IMG/VR virus record: IMGVR_UViG_2541047695_000003
Strand: one strand, 5' to 3'
Source of the DNA: a virus
Lineage: Duplodnaviria; Heunggongvirae; Uroviricota; Caudoviricetes
DNA: 34,489 bases
The position numbers and the translations under genes are program-made. The notes beneath the pieces were generated by a model that did no database searches, was not told the DNA's origin, and was given only the letters and a program-made list of their open reading frames with translations. Numbering within the stretch: the first letter of the stretch is position 1; the number at the start of each line of letters is the position of its first letter. Positions 10,372 to 22,378 of the stretch are shown piece by piece.

Positions 10372-12372
10372 ATGCTTAAATTTCGCCGCGATCTTAACGG
10401 TTACGGTGGAGTTATTAACGAAGGGCATAACGATCAATACGAATTTGAAATTGCTTTCTCCAGTGAACAGCCGTATCAGCGCCAATTCTGGGATGAGCAA
10501 AATCAAGAGATGGTGGTACTAGATGAAATTCTGGTACATACACCGGAAGCGGTTGATCTGTCTCGTCTGAATAATAACGCTCCGTTGCTGTTCAATCATA
10601 ATTTCGATAATCATTTAGGTGTAGTCTGCGACGCTCGAATCGATGCGGATAACGTAGGTCGTGCTCTGGTTAAATTCTCTAAGCATGGCACTTTGGCTAA
10701 TGATATTCGCAATAAAGTCATTGAAGGTACGATGGAAAAAATTTCTGTCGGCTATGACATTAAAGAATATCACATCGATTACGCCAAAGGGCAATTGATT
10801 GTTACTAAGTGGGCGCCCTATGAACTCTCATTTGTCACCGTTCCTGCTGACGATACGGTCGGTTTAAATCGCTCTCTAAATACTATCACAGTTAATTTGG
10901 AGGCTAAACGCGATATGACTAAAGAACAAATTGAAGAAATCAAAGAAGAACAAGAATCCGCTCAGGTTGAAGAAACTCCGGTAGAAGAAATTAAAGAATC
11001 GGAAGTTGAAGAAACTCAAGAGCGCCAAGTTGAAGAGAATAAAGAAGATGAAAATCTCGAAGACGGAAAAGACGCTGAACATCCTGAAAGTGTTGATGAT
11101 GATAGTTCAACTGTTCGGGAAGAAGAAATAAAAGAAGAACGTGAAGCTGCTCCGGTTGAAGAAGAAAAAATCGAAGAAGTGGCTGAACGTTCCGAAGAAG
11201 ACGAATTAGAAATTCGCGAAATTGCACGCGAACTAAATATTGATGACGAAGAATTGAAACGCGCATTGGCAATTAAAGACATGACGCCGGAAGCATTCCG
11301 CACTAAGGCACTAAATAATCTCGTCAATGCTCAACGTAATAACGAACAAATTAAGGACTCTAAAATGGAAAAAACTTTTGACCTGAACAACGTAATTCGC
11401 TCTCTGGTAGATGGTGCTGCTCTGGGTGCTAACGAAGCTGAATATTCCTCTATGGCTGCTGGTGCTGCGATGCAGCGTGGTCGTGCTGCTCGTGGTGGCT
11501 CTGTATTCGTTCCGGCTGCTGCTCTGCGTGCTGCTGCTGATGGTAACACCAAAACTACTCTGACCGCTGTAACTGACGAAAAACTGATGACTGAATCCTA
11601 CATCGAAATGCTGATGCCGGAATCTGTTCTGGGTCGTCTGGGTGTGACTGTTTACAGTGGCTTGAACTCCCCGACCGCTATTCCAAAAATGACCGCTTCC
11701 AGCGTTGACGCTTTCGGCTTCGTTGATGAAAACGGTGCTGCACCGGAAAGCAAAGCTGAATTTGCGAACGTGAAACTGTCTCCGAAAACTTTTGCTGGTG
11801 GCAACCCGATCAGCCGTCAGTCGCTGAAAACCGTTCCGGGCATCGCTACCCTGATCACTGATCACATTAACAAAGCTGTTCGTATCAAACTGGAACAACT
11901 GATTCTGTCTGATAAAGAAAATGCTCGTGGTCCGGCTGGTCTGGTTAAGCAACTGGTAGACGCTAGCCGCGTTACCAAGAAAGCTGCTTTCTCTTATAAA
12001 GACTTCCTGAAAGAAATTGCAGCACTGACCGACGCTGGCGTTCCTGCTCAGGCGATCAAGTTTGCAATGAGCGGTGCAACTGCTGCTGAACTGGAATCTA
12101 CCCTGAAAGATAACGGCGTTTCCGGTTATATCATCGAAAACGGCAAACTGGCTGGTTACGAAGTAGTTACTTCTGGCGTTATCCCGGCAGACCACATCGT
12201 TCTGGGTGACTTCTCCGGTATTACTATCGGTGAGTGGGGAGGTCTGGAACTCGACATGGATCTAACTACATATAGGGATCGTGGTGCGGTAGTGCCTCGT
12301 ATCTTTGTAGATTTGGACTACGTTGTAGCACAGCCGGAAGCCCTGAAAGTTCTTCACATCTCCGCTGAATGA
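10372..12372 (+). CDS. Prohead protease - acidic scaffold linker - HK97-fold major capsid protein fusion
   Basis: 666 aa; N-domain resembles caudoviral prohead serine proteases; residues about 185-330 are E/K-rich; C-terminal 336 aa resemble the HK97-type capsid family. Confidence 0.9.
   Translation: MLKFRRDLNGYGGVINEGHNDQYEFEIAFSSEQPYQRQFWDEQNQEMVVLDEILVHTPEAVDLSRLNNNAPLLFNHNFDNHLGVVCDARIDADNVGRALVKFSKHGTLANDIRNKVIEGTMEKISVGYDIKEYHIDYAKGQLIVTKWAPYELSFVTVPADDTVGLNRSLNTITVNLEAKRDMTKEQIEEIKEEQESAQVEETPVEEIKESEVEETQERQVEENKEDENLEDGKDAEHPESVDDDSSTVREEEIKEEREAAPVEEEKIEEVAERSEEDELEIREIARELNIDDEELKRALAIKDMTPEAFRTKALNNLVNAQRNNEQIKDSKMEKTFDLNNVIRSLVDGAALGANEAEYSSMAAGAAMQRGRAARGGSVFVPAAALRAAADGNTKTTLTAVTDEKLMTESYIEMLMPESVLGRLGVTVYSGLNSPTAIPKMTASSVDAFGFVDENGAAPESKAEFANVKLSPKTFAGGNPISRQSLKTVPGIATLITDHINKAVRIKLEQLILSDKENARGPAGLVKQLVDASRVTKKAAFSYKDFLKEIAALTDAGVPAQAIKFAMSGATAAELESTLKDNGVSGYIIENGKLAGYEVVTSGVIPADHIVLGDFSGITIGEWGGLELDMDLTTYRDRGAVVPRIFVDLDYVVAQPEALKVLHISAE
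11365..12372 (+). CDS. Nested in-frame major capsid protein from an internal start
   Basis: AAGGA (11353-11357) 7 nt before the in-frame ATG at 11365; codon usage switches to gct/ggt/cgt/ctg from this point. Confidence 0.5.
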   Translation: MEKTFDLNNVIRSLVDGAALGANEAEYSSMAAGAAMQRGRAARGGSVFVPAAALRAAADGNTKTTLTAVTDEKLMTESYIEMLMPESVLGRLGVTVYSGLNSPTAIPKMTASSVDAFGFVDENGAAPESKAEFANVKLSPKTFAGGNPISRQSLKTVPGIATLITDHINKAVRIKLEQLILSDKENARGPAGLVKQLVDASRVTKKAAFSYKDFLKEIAALTDAGVPAQAIKFAMSGATAAELESTLKDNGVSGYIIENGKLAGYEVVTSGVIPADHIVLGDFSGITIGEWGGLELDMDLTTYRDRGAVVPRIFVDLDYVVAQPEALKVLHISAE

Positions 12373-12504
12373 ACTCCTGTAGAACCTTCTGAACCTTCCC
12401 CCGATTTGGGGGAAGAAAATCTGATTCCATCTCAGGAAGAAGAAGTTCAAGAGGTTACGGCGAAAGCCACAGTTAAAAAAGAACGTAAGACTAAAGCAAA
12501 ATAA
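12373..12504 (+). other. 43 in-frame sense codons after the capsid UGA, closed by TAATAA: candidate read-through extension
   Basis: Hand translation TPVEPSEPSPDLGEENLIPSQEEEVQEVTAKATVKKERKTKAK; no internal start with an SD; the terminator follows the extension, not the UGA. Confidence 0.35.
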
Positions 12505-12509
12505 TAATT

Positions 12510-12537
12510 AGCCCTGCCTTAATGGTGGGGCTTTTTT
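12510..12537 (+). terminator. Rho-independent terminator or attenuator after the capsid region
   Basis: 9-bp stem 12510-12518/12524-12532 (two G-U pairs) followed by T6. Confidence 0.7.
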
Positions 12538-12567
12538 GTATGTAAATACTCCATAAAGGGGGTAACT

Positions 12568-12858
12568 ATGTTCAAATTATCAGAATCACAATTATCAAGA
12601 ATGTTTCGAAGTGCTCCTGTATTTTCGGTGGAAGGTGGTAAATCAATTCGTGCTTATCATGAAATTACCACTACCGACGAACAAGGGGTAATTACAGAAT
12701 CAGAATTTCTATTTTGTCGTGAGGGAGACTTAAATCAGGGTGATGTTGTCATTGTAGACGGTGAACGCTTCAAAGTTCAATACGTTAAGCGCAATGGTGA
12801 TAATACTTCTGATTGCTTTATTGCTCGTGCAGGGGGTACACATGCTCGCTACCGTTAA
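12568..12858 (+). CDS. Head-tail adaptor or head-closure protein
   Basis: 96 aa directly after the capsid gene; GDVVIVDGERFKVQYV motif typical of head-tail joining proteins; AAGGGGGTAA SD. Confidence 0.7.
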   Translation: MFKLSESQLSRMFRSAPVFSVEGGKSIRAYHEITTTDEQGVITESEFLFCREGDLNQGDVVIVDGERFKVQYVKRNGDNTSDCFIARAGGTHARYR

Positions 12859-13264
12859 TAATATGCCTAGACTGAAAATTAAACGCGCCTTGCAGGATAT
12901 TATCGAACAAGATTTAGGTCTGGCTTTAAACGTAGAACAAACTCAGCAAGGCTTTAGTGATGATGTGGTTTGTTGGATTACCGGAATGAATGAGACTTAC
13001 AATAGGGTCCGTGGTGGTAATGCAATGCAAGCTGAATGCGTTATCGAAATGCAGTTGTATTCTCAGAATCATGAAACCAAAATTCATGAGGGTATTTGCC
13101 AGATAATCCAGATTCAGCCTGATAATCCACGTTTTAAAGATTTGGGCTTCTCTATTTCAGATATCACTCCAGTAGCTTCTAATACCGATTATGACGATGA
13201 TTCTAGTGATGGGGGTATCGTTGGGACACTTAGCCTTAAATTTTCTTATCTAGCGCGTTTTTAA
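12842..13264 (+). CDS. Neck or tail-completion protein
   Basis: Start chosen at ATG 12842 (AGGGGG SD, 17-nt overlap with the upstream gene) rather than 12761; ATG 12863 is an alternative. Confidence 0.65.
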   Translation: MLATVNNMPRLKIKRALQDIIEQDLGLALNVEQTQQGFSDDVVCWITGMNETYNRVRGGNAMQAECVIEMQLYSQNHETKIHEGICQIIQIQPDNPRFKDLGFSISDITPVASNTDYDDDSSDGGIVGTLSLKFSYLARF

Positions 13265-19257: not shown

Positions 19258-19566
19258 ATGAATATTAATGAAATGTTAGCCGCACTTTCTCCGAAACGCG
19301 AATCTCTGACCATCGGTGGATTTACTTTCTATGCTCGCCCTATGTCAGTAAAAGAATTTAACGAACATGTTTTCAATACCGATAAAGAAGACCGTGATGA
19401 ACGTTCTATTCTTCGTTGTATTGAAGATGAAGACGGTAAGCCAGTATTTGAATCTATTGAACAAGTTAAGGCACTGTATACTAACGTCCGCAGTGAATTA
19501 ATCGGTTTGGTTGCTCAAGCGTCATTGATGCAAGATCCGGCGGTAATTGAAAACGAGGTAAAGTAA
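19258..19566 (+). CDS. Tail assembly chaperone (gpG-like)
   Basis: 102 aa between the tube protein and the tape measure. Confidence 0.8.
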   Translation: MNINEMLAALSPKRESLTIGGFTFYARPMSVKEFNEHVFNTDKEDRDERSILRCIEDEDGKPVFESIEQVKALYTNVRSELIGLVAQASLMQDPAVIENEVK

Positions 19567-19937
19567 ACCCGCTTCTGAATTTCTATTTCCGGCAAATGAT
19601 GAGATCGGGGCTTAGTAAAGATGAAATGGATAATATGCCAATCACTCTATTTTGGAAATTATACATTTTCGACACCTACTTAGAACCACAAAGCCCCGCG
19701 TTTCATGATATGCAGAATGCGATGTTGCAATATTCCATGTATATGACGTCGCAAGGAATGACACGCGAAACTGCAAAGAAACTCAAGCCTAGCCAATTCC
19801 AATTAATTAGAGAAGAAAAACTCTTTAAAACTAAAGAAGAACTGGAAGAAATTGCACGCAAGAAAGAAGAAGAACGTAAAGCGGCAATGCTGAACATGTT
19901 TGATCCATCTTTGCTTGAGAAACTCAGAAGCGGTTAA
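19258..19937 (+). CDS. Tail assembly chaperone G-T fusion by a predicted -1 frameshift near 19558-19564
   Basis: The -1 frame is open from 19551 to 19937; the overlap window is only 19551-19563 (AAACGAGGTAAAG) just before the G stop TAA. Confidence 0.55.
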
Positions 19938-19948
19938 AGGGGTAATTT

Positions 19949-22378
19949 ATGACAAAACATATAGTAACAATAGAAGGGGATAATAAAGGGCTAAAGAGAA
20001 GTACCAATGAAGCCGCCGACCTTCTCGATAGTTTGTCTGAAAAGGCAAGTAATATTGATTTTGGTGGTGGCTTATCTGGTCTGACTGGATCTCTTCGTGG
20101 GATCGCTGGCTCTGCTGGTTTAGCTGCTGGTGGTATCGGCTTAGTTGCGACCGCAGTGGTTGCAGCCGCTAAAGCTGGCGCGGAATACGTTAAACAATAT
20201 TCAGAAGTATCTAAGGCGACCGGACTCTCGATTGAATCCCTTCAAAGACTGGAAAAGGAATTTTCTGGTACTGGCCTAACAGTTGAAAAATTCGGTGATA
20301 TCAACAAAGACACCTTAGATAAGATGGGTGATGCATGGGCTAACGGTGGTGGTATTGCTGATGACTTAGAATCGGTTGGCCTTAAGTTAGAAAACTATGC
20401 TCACTTCATGACTGATCCGCAAGGTGGTATGAAAGCGGCGATCCAAGTGTTCTATGACATGAAGAAAGCCGGAAAATCAATGGCTGAAATCAAGTTCATG
20501 ATGGAATCTTTAGCCAGTGATTCAAGCCATATGACCAGCCAGCTTGAGAAATATAATACTGCTCAAGAGGCGATGATCGCTATTCAGAATCAATCTGTTA
20601 ACGTCACCGAAGAAAACGCTAAAAAATATGATAAATTTTCTCAAAATATCAATAAGCTGGAAAATAACCTGAAAGGTGTCGGTATGACCATTTCTGGTCC
20701 GCTGGTTGATAGTTTAAACTGGTTATTTGACTGGTTTAATATTGATTGGGAAAAGAGTTCTCTATTCAGGGCATTAGATCGACTGAATAAAGAAGGCAAG
20801 ACCGCAACTGGCGGTATTCTTAACGCCAACCATAAAGACGCTCAAAAAATTATTGACAAGTACAATAAAGAAAAGCGTTGGAATAATCTGGCAGATTGGG
20901 AAAAGGCCGCGATCCGTGGTGCTGGTGTCGATCCTCGTACTGCTGGCTTTGATGTTGAAGGATTTAAGAAACGTTTTGGTGATTCTTATAAGAAAAATGG
21001 CTCTCTGATTGTTGTCGATAACGGGGAACATCTAACCCGCAAGGCAGATCCTAACCGTGATTTGACTATACCAAATAAACCAGTAAGACCAGAATCATTG
21101 GGTAAGTCTGGTAATGAGAAGAAAGCCGAAGAAGAAGCACGCAAGAAAGCGGAAGAGGCAGCTAAAAAGGCTAAGGAAGCCGCAGAAAAAGCACAGAAAG
21201 CACGCGAGGATGCAATCAAGCGACTGAATGCACTTGATGTTAAATTGCAAGGGCAAGTTGCAGCGTCTATCACTTCTCAAAATAGCCAGTTGCAAAACAG
21301 CTTAAAAGATGTGAACGACGCGTTAGCTCTGGGCTTAATCTCTCAGGAAGACGCAGCCGCGAAACGCCAGGCGCTAATCGATCAGAATACTGAAAACGTT
21401 TATAAAATGATGTTGGGTGCTGATCCGATTGATGCTCTGAATGCTTTAACACAATTGCAACAAATCAGGGACAACGAGCTAGAAAGCCATAAACGGTTAC
21501 TTGATGGTAAAGCTATCTCCTACGAAGAATATATGCGTCGTGTGAACGATACCGAGCAAAACTATTCTCAGATTGAAAATTCTTTACAGGGAATGGATGG
21601 TTATAAAACCAATCAATTAACTAGTAGTTATGATTATCAAGACTCAAATAATCCGTTTGCTAAATTTAATGCAATCGATAAAGAGAAATCGGATGCTGAA
21701 CAAGATTATAAGACCGATAAACTCAAGATTGATGGGATCACCGATCCGGCTAAACGGATGGAAGCATTAGAAAAACTCAATGAAAACCATCAAAAACGAA
21801 TGGCTGCAATTGAGAAGAAATATGCTGATGCTCGCCAGTCAATAGCCGATGATATGTACGGCGGTTTTGCTGCTGCAATGACTCTCTTCGGGCAGGAAAA
21901 CACTAAAGCTATGCAGATGGCTTTCAATGCTCATAAAGCATTCTCTATCGGACAAGCGACGGTGAACATGTGGACGGCTGCTACCGATGCATGGAACGAT
22001 CCGACCAACGTCACCACAGGTCAAAAAATCGCGGCTGCTGCATTGGCTGTTTCTCAGAACATGGGGAACATCGCAAACATCAAGTCTACTAACGTTAGCG
22101 GTATGGCTCATGATGGTATTGATAACATCCCTCGTGAGGGTACATGGTTGCTTGATAAGGGTGAACGAGTAGTTGATCAGCGTACTAACGGTGATTTGAA
22201 AGACTTCCTTGCTGCTCAAAAATCAGGTGGTGGTAACTCTCAGCCGATTGAAGTTAATGCGCCTTTGAACATTAACGGCAACGTTAATAGCTCAGACAAG
22301 ATGGTCATGGATGCTATCAAACGTCACGCTAAGTTTGTTGCTCAGGCGATAGAAGACGTTCAGCGTCGTAAGATGTAA
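19949..22378 (+). CDS. Tape measure protein
   Basis: 809 aa, Gly/Ala hydrophobic segments, long coiled-coil and low-complexity KKAEEEARKKAEEAAKKAKEAAEKAQKA, position after G/T. Confidence 0.9.
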   Translation: MTKHIVTIEGDNKGLKRSTNEAADLLDSLSEKASNIDFGGGLSGLTGSLRGIAGSAGLAAGGIGLVATAVVAAAKAGAEYVKQYSEVSKATGLSIESLQRLEKEFSGTGLTVEKFGDINKDTLDKMGDAWANGGGIADDLESVGLKLENYAHFMTDPQGGMKAAIQVFYDMKKAGKSMAEIKFMMESLASDSSHMTSQLEKYNTAQEAMIAIQNQSVNVTEENAKKYDKFSQNINKLENNLKGVGMTISGPLVDSLNWLFDWFNIDWEKSSLFRALDRLNKEGKTATGGILNANHKDAQKIIDKYNKEKRWNNLADWEKAAIRGAGVDPRTAGFDVEGFKKRFGDSYKKNGSLIVVDNGEHLTRKADPNRDLTIPNKPVRPESLGKSGNEKKAEEEARKKAEEAAKKAKEAAEKAQKAREDAIKRLNALDVKLQGQVAASITSQNSQLQNSLKDVNDALALGLISQEDAAAKRQALIDQNTENVYKMMLGADPIDALNALTQLQQIRDNELESHKRLLDGKAISYEEYMRRVNDTEQNYSQIENSLQGMDGYKTNQLTSSYDYQDSNNPFAKFNAIDKEKSDAEQDYKTDKLKIDGITDPAKRMEALEKLNENHQKRMAAIEKKYADARQSIADDMYGGFAAAMTLFGQENTKAMQMAFNAHKAFSIGQATVNMWTAATDAWNDPTNVTTGQKIAAAALAVSQNMGNIANIKSTNVSGMAHDGIDNIPREGTWLLDKGERVVDQRTNGDLKDFLAAQKSGGGNSQPIEVNAPLNINGNVNSSDKMVMDAIKRHAKFVAQAIEDVQRRKM

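Follow-up and report, generated by a model that had tools for sequence, protein, structure and literature searches.

A UGA codon followed by a conserved open frame at the end of a prophage major capsid gene: candidate stop-codon read-through in Escherichia coli

The major capsid gene in IMG/VR virus record IMGVR_UViG_2541047695_000003, a 34,489 nt stretch of tailed phage (Caudoviricetes) DNA referred to here as the window, ends in UGA. The same frame then stays open for a further 43 codons, and a transcription terminator is reached only after these have been closed by a tandem stop. This raises the question of whether some ribosomes read through the capsid stop codon to produce a minor, C-terminally extended capsid subunit, as was proposed when the window was first inspected without database searches (the sequence-only reading). 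After comparison with relatives, we consider it probable that UGA read-through yields a genuine minor species of extended capsid protein. The proposal draws on an invariant UGA-A, a frame that is open in all 29 haplotypes found, in-frame insertions and deletions, an RNA structure downstream of the stop and equivalent tails in sister lineages; the frame-specific substitution signal that it would also lead one to expect was not seen. The features on which the argument depends are as follows, in window coordinates.

10372–12369, + strand: fusion open reading frame (ORF) encoding a prohead protease (amino acids 40–162), an acidic scaffold-like linker and an HK97-type major capsid protein (amino acids 407–662), from Pfam profiles
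12370–12373, + strand: UGA stop codon and the next A (UGA-A), the TGA itself being 12370–12372
12373–12501, + strand: in-frame extension of 43 sense codons, an open reading frame with an acidic, Pro-rich proximal part and a Lys-rich distal tail
12383–12456, + strand: stable RNA structure, onset 10 nt past the UGA (minimum free energy -38.3 kcal/mol, z = -3.5, 0/200 shuffles as stable)
12395–12415, + strand: core 8 bp hairpin CUUCCCCC-GAUUU-GGGGGAAG, from folding of the long extension type
12502–12507, + strand: tandem stop TAATAA that closes the extension, read from the sequence
12510–12538, + strand: intrinsic terminator, a 9 bp stem with 6 G-C pairs (hairpin 12510–12532) and then TTTTTT, from a terminator scan

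Conservation of the stop codon, frame and extension

The sequence and the terminator scan bore out the arrangement of TGA, 43 open codons, TAATAA and terminator given in the sequence-only reading. What had been called the major capsid gene does encode the capsid domain, but as part of a 666-codon fusion ORF (10372–12372 with the TGA included) that also encodes the protease and the acidic linker. The Peptidase_S78 match has an E value of 5.6e-10, and the Phage_capsid match (PF05065; E=2.1e-26) covers profile positions 10–279 of 280, which places the product in the HK97 fold. The nearest solved structure is a major capsid protein, 8gta_A (E=1.2e-24), and the alignment with it reaches to seven or fewer residues from the C-terminus. 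The stop is preceded by CAC ATC TCC GCT GAA, and the extension behind it, TPVEPSEPSPDLGEENLIPSQEEEVQEVTAKATVKKERKTKAK, ends in KKERKTKAK. As had been remarked, the TPVE of the extension echoes the scaffold linker, which contains ETPVEE, and late genes mostly stop with TAA; TAA closes 30 of the 34 plausible ORFs of the window and TGA the other 4. The terminator stem begins two bases after TAATAA, and 12510–12538 has both the G+C-rich hairpin and the T-run of a Rho-independent terminator.

A 43-codon open run is unremarkable in one sequence. From base composition, the chance of such a run in the window alone is approximately 6%, and the open runs that follow the stops of other window genes are 31–72 codons long. 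It exceeds chance only through its conservation in relatives. These were collected by scanning viral, metagenome and E. coli collections, which returned approximately 60 independent E. coli/Shigella prophage contigs that share the downstream terminator and carry 29 distinct extension haplotypes.

TGA followed by A was invariant in 100/100 anchored loci, in 29/29 extension haplotypes and behind both of two capsid alleles, so every haplotype has the leaky, read-through-prone UGA-A context. The codon ahead of the TGA varies (GAA, GAG, GAC or GAT) yet always encodes Glu or Asp. Frame 0 was open in every haplotype, for 28, 33 or 42–45 codons, while frames +1 and +2 of the extension hold 1–7 stops. 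Just ahead of the terminator, every haplotype closes with a tandem stop, which is TAATAA except in one subgroup that has TGATAA. Thus, a downstream ORF in the frame of the capsid gene is kept open in relatives, as programmed read-through would require and as had been suggested for checking, and this holds on two capsid alleles that are only approximately 40% identical. The second of these, a protease-scaffold-capsid allele ending ..VVQKKVD, is 42% identical to that of the window in whole-protein alignment and 37–39% identical in the best tblastn segments, and is also followed by TGA and an extension.

The extensions fall into two types that cannot be aligned with one another, a long type beginning T[PNS]VEPSEPSPDLGEENLIP... 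and a short type beginning NNEELPEEIPVV..., and both encode peptides that are acidic and then basic. Four distinct endings were found, namely KKVGRPPKAK, KKQRKTKE, KKERKTKAK and KRGRKPKE. An AT-hook (a G-R-P core with basic flanks) is not present in the window tail; the GRP core occurs only in other haplotypes, in KKVGRPPKAK. A Pfam profile search found no match inside the extension. The sequence-only reading had also stated that the extension lacks a start codon and Shine-Dalgarno sequence of its own. The extension has neither a Shine-Dalgarno sequence nor a conserved start codon, but that of the window does include a single in-frame TTG, at 12406.

The extension has changed in length independently 5–6 times, once by 48 nt, once by 27 nt and on three or four occasions by 3 nt, and all of these changes are multiples of 3. 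A few bases downstream, the terminator loop varies by insertions and deletions of 1 and 2 nt. We estimate the chance that five length changes would all be in frame at approximately (1/3)^5 = 0.004. Between 12508 and the next gene, a stretch of 60 nt, there is almost no variation (nucleotide diversity, pi, 0.006).

A stable RNA structure is located shortly downstream of the candidate recoding site, at 10 nt in the window. The core stem is identical in all long-type haplotypes, and the region surrounding it has a pi of approximately 0.13. The short type has a different hairpin, of 11 bp, at the same 10 nt spacing (z -4.4), and here a compensatory change on both sides of the stem, and two changes on one side only, have kept the pairing and altered the encoded residues. 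The loops differ by type, GAUUU in the long and GAAA in the short. An Rfam search at a permissive threshold returned only sub-threshold chance matches. Separately, relatives with VGRPP tails (for example L002, 5075–5090) have a second small hairpin, GGTGG-GACGT-CCACC, within the KKVGRPPKAK segment. It is absent from the window, and has a compensatory variant, GGCGG...CCGCC, that changes Val to Ala. In another relative (IMGVR_UViG_2877285697_000006; L033, L053 and L086), a frame break within the capsid gene leads to a stop at codon 393, which may reflect a sequencing error or a dead prophage. It still retains the TGA and an open short-type extension with a compensatory hairpin variant.

In E. 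coli, UGA is the leakiest of the stop codons, and the residue inserted there is mostly Trp (PMC11126739). In this host, tRNA-Trp is especially liable to misread a UGA that precedes an A, and highly expressed genes favour UAA (PMC5289835). In the scheme that we infer, which covers the occurrence and rate of read-through, the insertion of Trp, incorporation into the virion and a role for the tail, most ribosomes on the capsid gene would stop at the UGA at 12370–12372. A minority would decode it via tRNA-Trp and continue for 43 codons to the TAATAA, favoured by the UGA-A context, to which the stem-loop 10 nt downstream may add. The junction across the stop would read VLHISAE-W-TPVEPSEPSPDLGEENLIPSQEEEVQEVTAK. 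A tRNA scan for a phage-encoded suppressor found no tRNA gene in the window. This would give a minor capsid subunit, approximately 4.6 kDa larger than the normal one, bearing a flexible tail of approximately 44 residues that is acidic and Pro-rich and then Lys-rich and is expected to exit on the capsid exterior, close to the centre of the capsomer. An external position is probable, because T7 display vectors employ the C-terminus of the extended capsid protein 10B and because an immunoglobulin (Ig) domain protrudes outside in phi29. In phi29, this C-terminal domain of the HK97-fold capsid protein is found on the exterior near the capsomer centre (PMC6542822). Judging by its charge, our guess would be that the tail adheres to anionic surfaces or nucleic acid.

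Tails of sister lineages and known recoding systems

Sister lineages with capsid proteins 38–46% identical to that of the window (best tblastn segment) have capsid genes that end in TAA, and many of them keep a short Ala/Pro/Lys-rich tail. In some, the tail is fused in frame and runs directly to the stop (..YEKGTPAEAKAAKQ, ..GTPAEAPAEAKAGK, ..GEAEAGETRKAK, ..QAKAPASK and ..GTPAEAKAAKQ). In others, it lies in the -1 frame, which is open up to the terminator (SLTDTGAQAAPVRKPRALKVTK, SLINTGEQASPAKVKKPRALKVK, SVIDSGLKKTRVNKLRSRKVTK, SLRKAKAKAKAKAETAE and LIDTGVQKTPIKKARAQKSVK, each closed by a stop). Several of the -1 lineages have A_AAA_AAG (L095 and L147) or A_AAA_AAA four codons ahead of the capsid stop; A_AAA_AAG is the slippery site of E. 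coli dnaX. The stem-loop that follows it shows two-sided compensatory changes at 7/18 pairs, among four sequences only, and insertions and deletions in the -1 group are likewise multiples of three. A single clade (80–85% identical) contains both fused and -1 versions, and GRKPK is shared by an in-frame tail (L099) and a -1 tail (L174). In most lineages, whether of the UGA or the -1 type, the extension ORF ends 2–7 nt before the terminator stem, while in the Escherichia phage DCP80 record the stop of the -1 ORF is 27 nt ahead of the terminator. From these signals, programmed -1 frameshifting at the 3' end of the capsid gene is probable in the sister prophages. The candidates are L095 (4360–4450), L147, L110, L089, L183 and L036 (DCP80), and the Lys-rich -1 ORF of this group comprises approximately 20–25 codons and runs up to the terminator. 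The -1 ORF of the sister prophages is unannotated in RefSeq.

Capsid subunits that are C-terminally extended by frameshifting have been described in the tailed phages T3, T7, A2, A118, A500 and PSA (PMC5009743). In T7 and T3 (gene 10A/10B), Lactobacillus phage A2 and Listeria phages A118, A500 and PSA, as proposed here, recoding takes place near the 3' end of the capsid gene of a tailed phage and a minority of the subunits are extended (PMC5009743). The sister lineages appear to take the frameshift route as well, by way of A_AAA_AAG, a stem-loop and a -1 ORF. In contrast, the window extension is in frame 0 behind a UGA, and no slippery heptamer X_XXY_YYZ was found near the end of the window capsid ORF. 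Therefore read-through, not frameshifting, would be needed to express it. It also differs from the Ig-like domain extensions of other phages in being a short, low-complexity tail; the T7 counterpart is not Ig-like either (PMC5009743). Atkins et al. reviewed a similar indifference to route (+1, -1 or in-frame) among phage structural proteins with Ig-like extensions, the T3 and A2 capsid proteins included, and ascribed it to placement by chance and subsequent selection for expression (PMC5009743).

The closest parallel to the route proposed here is outside the tailed phages. In Qbeta, the coat gene stops at a UGA followed by A, and suppression by normal tRNA-Trp gives the minor C-terminally extended subunit A1. 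Qbeta is a single-stranded RNA phage with an unrelated coat fold, and the A1 extension is folded, roughly 200 residues long and needed for infectivity. Stop misreading in a coliphage and the effect of an A after UGA have been documented (PMC5289835). The window shares with Qbeta (Leviviricetes) an E. coli host and a UGA-A capsid stop and, on the present proposal, would share suppression by normal tRNA-Trp and a minor extended subunit. It differs in being a double-stranded DNA (dsDNA) prophage with an HK97-type capsid protein and, across haplotypes, a tail of 28–45 residues.

Read-through in eukaryotic viruses (murine leukaemia virus, MuLV, gag-pol; alphavirus nsP3/nsP4; luteovirus coat) combines a leaky stop with a 3' stem-loop or pseudoknot approximately 8 nt downstream. 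The MuLV case, with its pseudoknot, is reviewed in PMC5009743. Like these modules, the window has a leaky stop and a stable RNA structure at approximately 10 nt, and read-through would carry the coat protein on through a Pro-rich segment, much as it does in luteoviruses. The translation system, with its eukaryotic release factor, differs. Given its placement, like that of the eukaryotic viral stimulators, the hairpin may stimulate read-through here.

A wider proposal, which is possible but on the doubtful side, is that a lineage of enterobacterial prophages tunes the share of capsid subunits with Lys-rich surface tails by interchangeable signals at the end of the capsid gene: in-frame fusion, -1 frameshifting at A_AAA_AAG with a stem-loop, or hairpin-assisted UGA read-through. 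On that proposal, the window would hold the first programmed read-through in a structural gene of a tailed dsDNA phage and the first structure-stimulated read-through in bacteria outside selenocysteine insertion. The sequence-only reading knew of no such extension as an established feature of tailed-phage capsids. Our literature search likewise found no report of read-through of a tailed-phage capsid gene, but capsid extensions made by recoding are established, all of them by frameshifting (PMC5009743), so that only the read-through route would be new.

If the proposal is correct, stop-codon read-through joins the recoding repertoire of tailed phages, in which only frameshifting is documented for capsid extensions (PMC5009743). 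E. coli would then hold a natural series of fused, frameshifted and read-through versions of one appendage, with which it could be asked why extended capsid subunits stay in the minority and whether 3' RNA structures stimulate read-through by bacterial ribosomes. The site would in addition identify a place on an HK97-type capsid at which C-terminal display is tolerated. In the three UGA-type relatives whose RefSeq annotation was inspected, no feature is recorded between the capsid gene and its downstream neighbour, so that the proposed extension product is missed in each of them.

Alternative explanations for the open frame

Several results weigh against translation of the extension. For frame 0, the ratio of non-synonymous to synonymous polymorphism (pN/pS) was 0.67, and the two shifted frames gave 0.69 and 0.70, so the selection test suggested in the sequence-only reading revealed no frame-specific purifying selection. 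Diversity in the extension is flat by codon position (0.108, 0.148 and 0.141), with no third-position excess, in contrast to the customary pattern found in the capsid domain (0.087, 0.063 and 0.229). A random-substitution model with 62 inferred substitutions leaves the frame open in 16–23% of cases, which is not significant. E. coli-preferred codons account for a fraction of 0.88 in the capsid domain, compared with 0.63 in the extension. When the capsid C-terminus, a Trp and the extension were used in a word-index search of a large protein database, no tailed protein was returned; this is a weak negative, as the same search missed the C-terminal residues of the major capsid protein itself. More distant relatives (<35% identity) are without a tail and their next gene begins at once. 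Finally, we know of no established case in which a downstream hairpin stimulates bacterial read-through. The substitution and codon-use results suit a rarely translated, low-complexity, disordered tail, but non-coding sequence fits them equally. The case for translation therefore rests on maintenance of the frame, the fixed UGA-A and the comparison with sister lineages.

The explanation that survives best after read-through, though we regard it as unlikely, is that the stretch is an untranslated, structured 3' untranslated region (UTR) of the capsid mRNA, involved in stability or processing or giving rise to a 3' UTR-derived small RNA that ends at the terminator, with the open frame a by-product. 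The non-coding-like substitutions, flat by codon position and with a pN/pS matching that of the shifted frames, are what such a UTR would produce, as is a substitution-only test of the open frame that is not significant. The hairpins are conserved, and in L033 changes that preserve pairing alter residues (Leu to Ser and Val to Ile). However, a UTR leaves unexplained why the TGA is never TAA, the norm for this phage, and why all 5–6 length changes are multiples of 3 beside a loop that has 1–2 nt insertions and deletions. Nor would it account for two non-alignable types that are both open and both encode acidic-then-basic peptides, or for relatives that bear the tail in frame or behind A_AAA_AAG, and the stretch has no Rfam match.

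Improbable, in our view, is a second explanation in which read-through is real but the peptide is irrelevant. A ribosome that reached the TAATAA, 2 nt before the terminator stem, would hinder formation of the terminator hairpin, and the frequency of read-through or frameshifting would thereby influence how far the head-tail and tail genes downstream are transcribed. This would explain why the open frame is kept while the amino acids look unconstrained, and why the extension ORF ends so close to the terminator stem in most UGA-type and -1 lineages. On the other hand, as few ribosomes would read through, the effect on termination should be small. Lys-rich composition recurs in unrelated sequences and in lineages with in-frame fusions, and the -1 ORF of DCP80 ends well short of its terminator.

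It is more improbable still that the extension is a decaying, functionless remnant of an ancestral in-frame tail severed by a nonsense mutation. Relatives with in-frame tails do exist and sequence constraint on the extension is weak, but much diversity has accumulated since the TGA arose (pi approximately 0.13, several insertions and deletions, two types, four endings and two alleles), yet the frame is broken in 0/29 haplotypes and the TGA-A has not drifted.

An independent small protein and selenocysteine insertion at the UGA are both very improbable. The in-frame TTG at 12406 could serve as start for the former, but it has no Shine-Dalgarno sequence, is embedded in the hairpin and is replaced by TCG (L099) or TTA in some relatives. 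An in-frame ATG is absent, and the one GTG that any haplotype has in frame encodes the Val of the VGRPP tails, close to where the extension ends. Selenocysteine insertion would be directed by the hairpin, which lies at a distance from the UGA close to that in the minimal E. coli selenocysteine insertion element. However, the hairpin loops differ by type, neither has the G-U signature of the SelB-binding loop or bulge, and there is no Rfam match. Two other candidates were rejected. The antisense ORFs 12266–12430 and 12262–12450 were discarded, the ATG of the first lying in a codon that is CCT, not CCA-T, in many relatives. Stop-hopping from GAA to a downstream GAA was discarded because several haplotypes have GAC, GAT or GAG as the take-off codon.

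The prophage lineage and neighbouring features

The capsid protein is 100% identical to entries named 'phage major capsid protein [Escherichia coli]', and approximately 2,200 homologues were found in a protein search. The locus was found in 54/5,426 complete E. coli genomes and was chromosomal every time; E. coli CE0007a (NZ_CP119011) and H2 (NZ_CP028733) are examples of lysogens with the element. The prophage has a G+C content of approximately 41%. The window belongs to an uncharacterised E. coli/Shigella prophage lineage. A search of deposited phages for near-identical DNA returned no match, and the lineage is absent from isolated phages. Two scans of genome contigs were made; the first found none and the second found a single distant locus, in Mangrovibacter, without a tail.

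The best match among deposited phages is a module in the DCP80 record (L036, PQ671644.1, 4285–10265), with a capsid protein that is 39.6% and a large terminase that is 42.9% identical to those of the window. The DCP80 record is 141 kb long and classed in the Straboviridae (T4-like), and its module, of a lambda-type terminase, portal and protease-capsid gene, is related to that of the window prophage. This combination may reflect a chimeric assembly or an unusual mosaic.

Two further features of the locus were recorded.

11353–11367, + strand: AAGGA-N7-ATG at the start of the capsid domain, a possible internal start for free capsid protein, from a conserved motif and a step in codon use
12568–12858, + strand: next gene, head-tail attachment-like (Pfam Phage_attach, E=2.2e-5, just under the family cut-off), the downstream bound of the locus

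The AAGGA-N7-ATG motif is kept in type A, type B and DCP80 relatives despite differences in the residues encoded. At this point in the window, the fraction of E. coli-preferred codons rises from 0.53 in the protease to 0.88 in the capsid domain, and comparable steps were found in type B (0.51 to 0.81) and L095 (0.48 to 0.73). This suggests that free capsid protein may additionally be made in bulk from an internal start. Over the final 44 capsid codons (12238–12369), the preferred-codon fraction is 0.65, compared with 0.88 across the rest of the capsid domain, and this stretch may be a recombination patch common to the extension module.

The counterpart of the 12568–12858 gene is labelled hypothetical protein in RefSeq relatives. 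The following ORF, listed with a GTG start at 12761–13264, overlaps it by approximately 100 nt. In relatives, the RefSeq start of the counterpart is only 17 nt inside the previous gene, and the true start in the window is probably near 12842. Further downstream, two small ORFs (19258–19566 and 19596–19937) directly precede a putative tape-measure gene of 809 residues (19949–22378), in the position usually occupied by the pair of tail-assembly chaperone genes expressed via a -1 frameshift.

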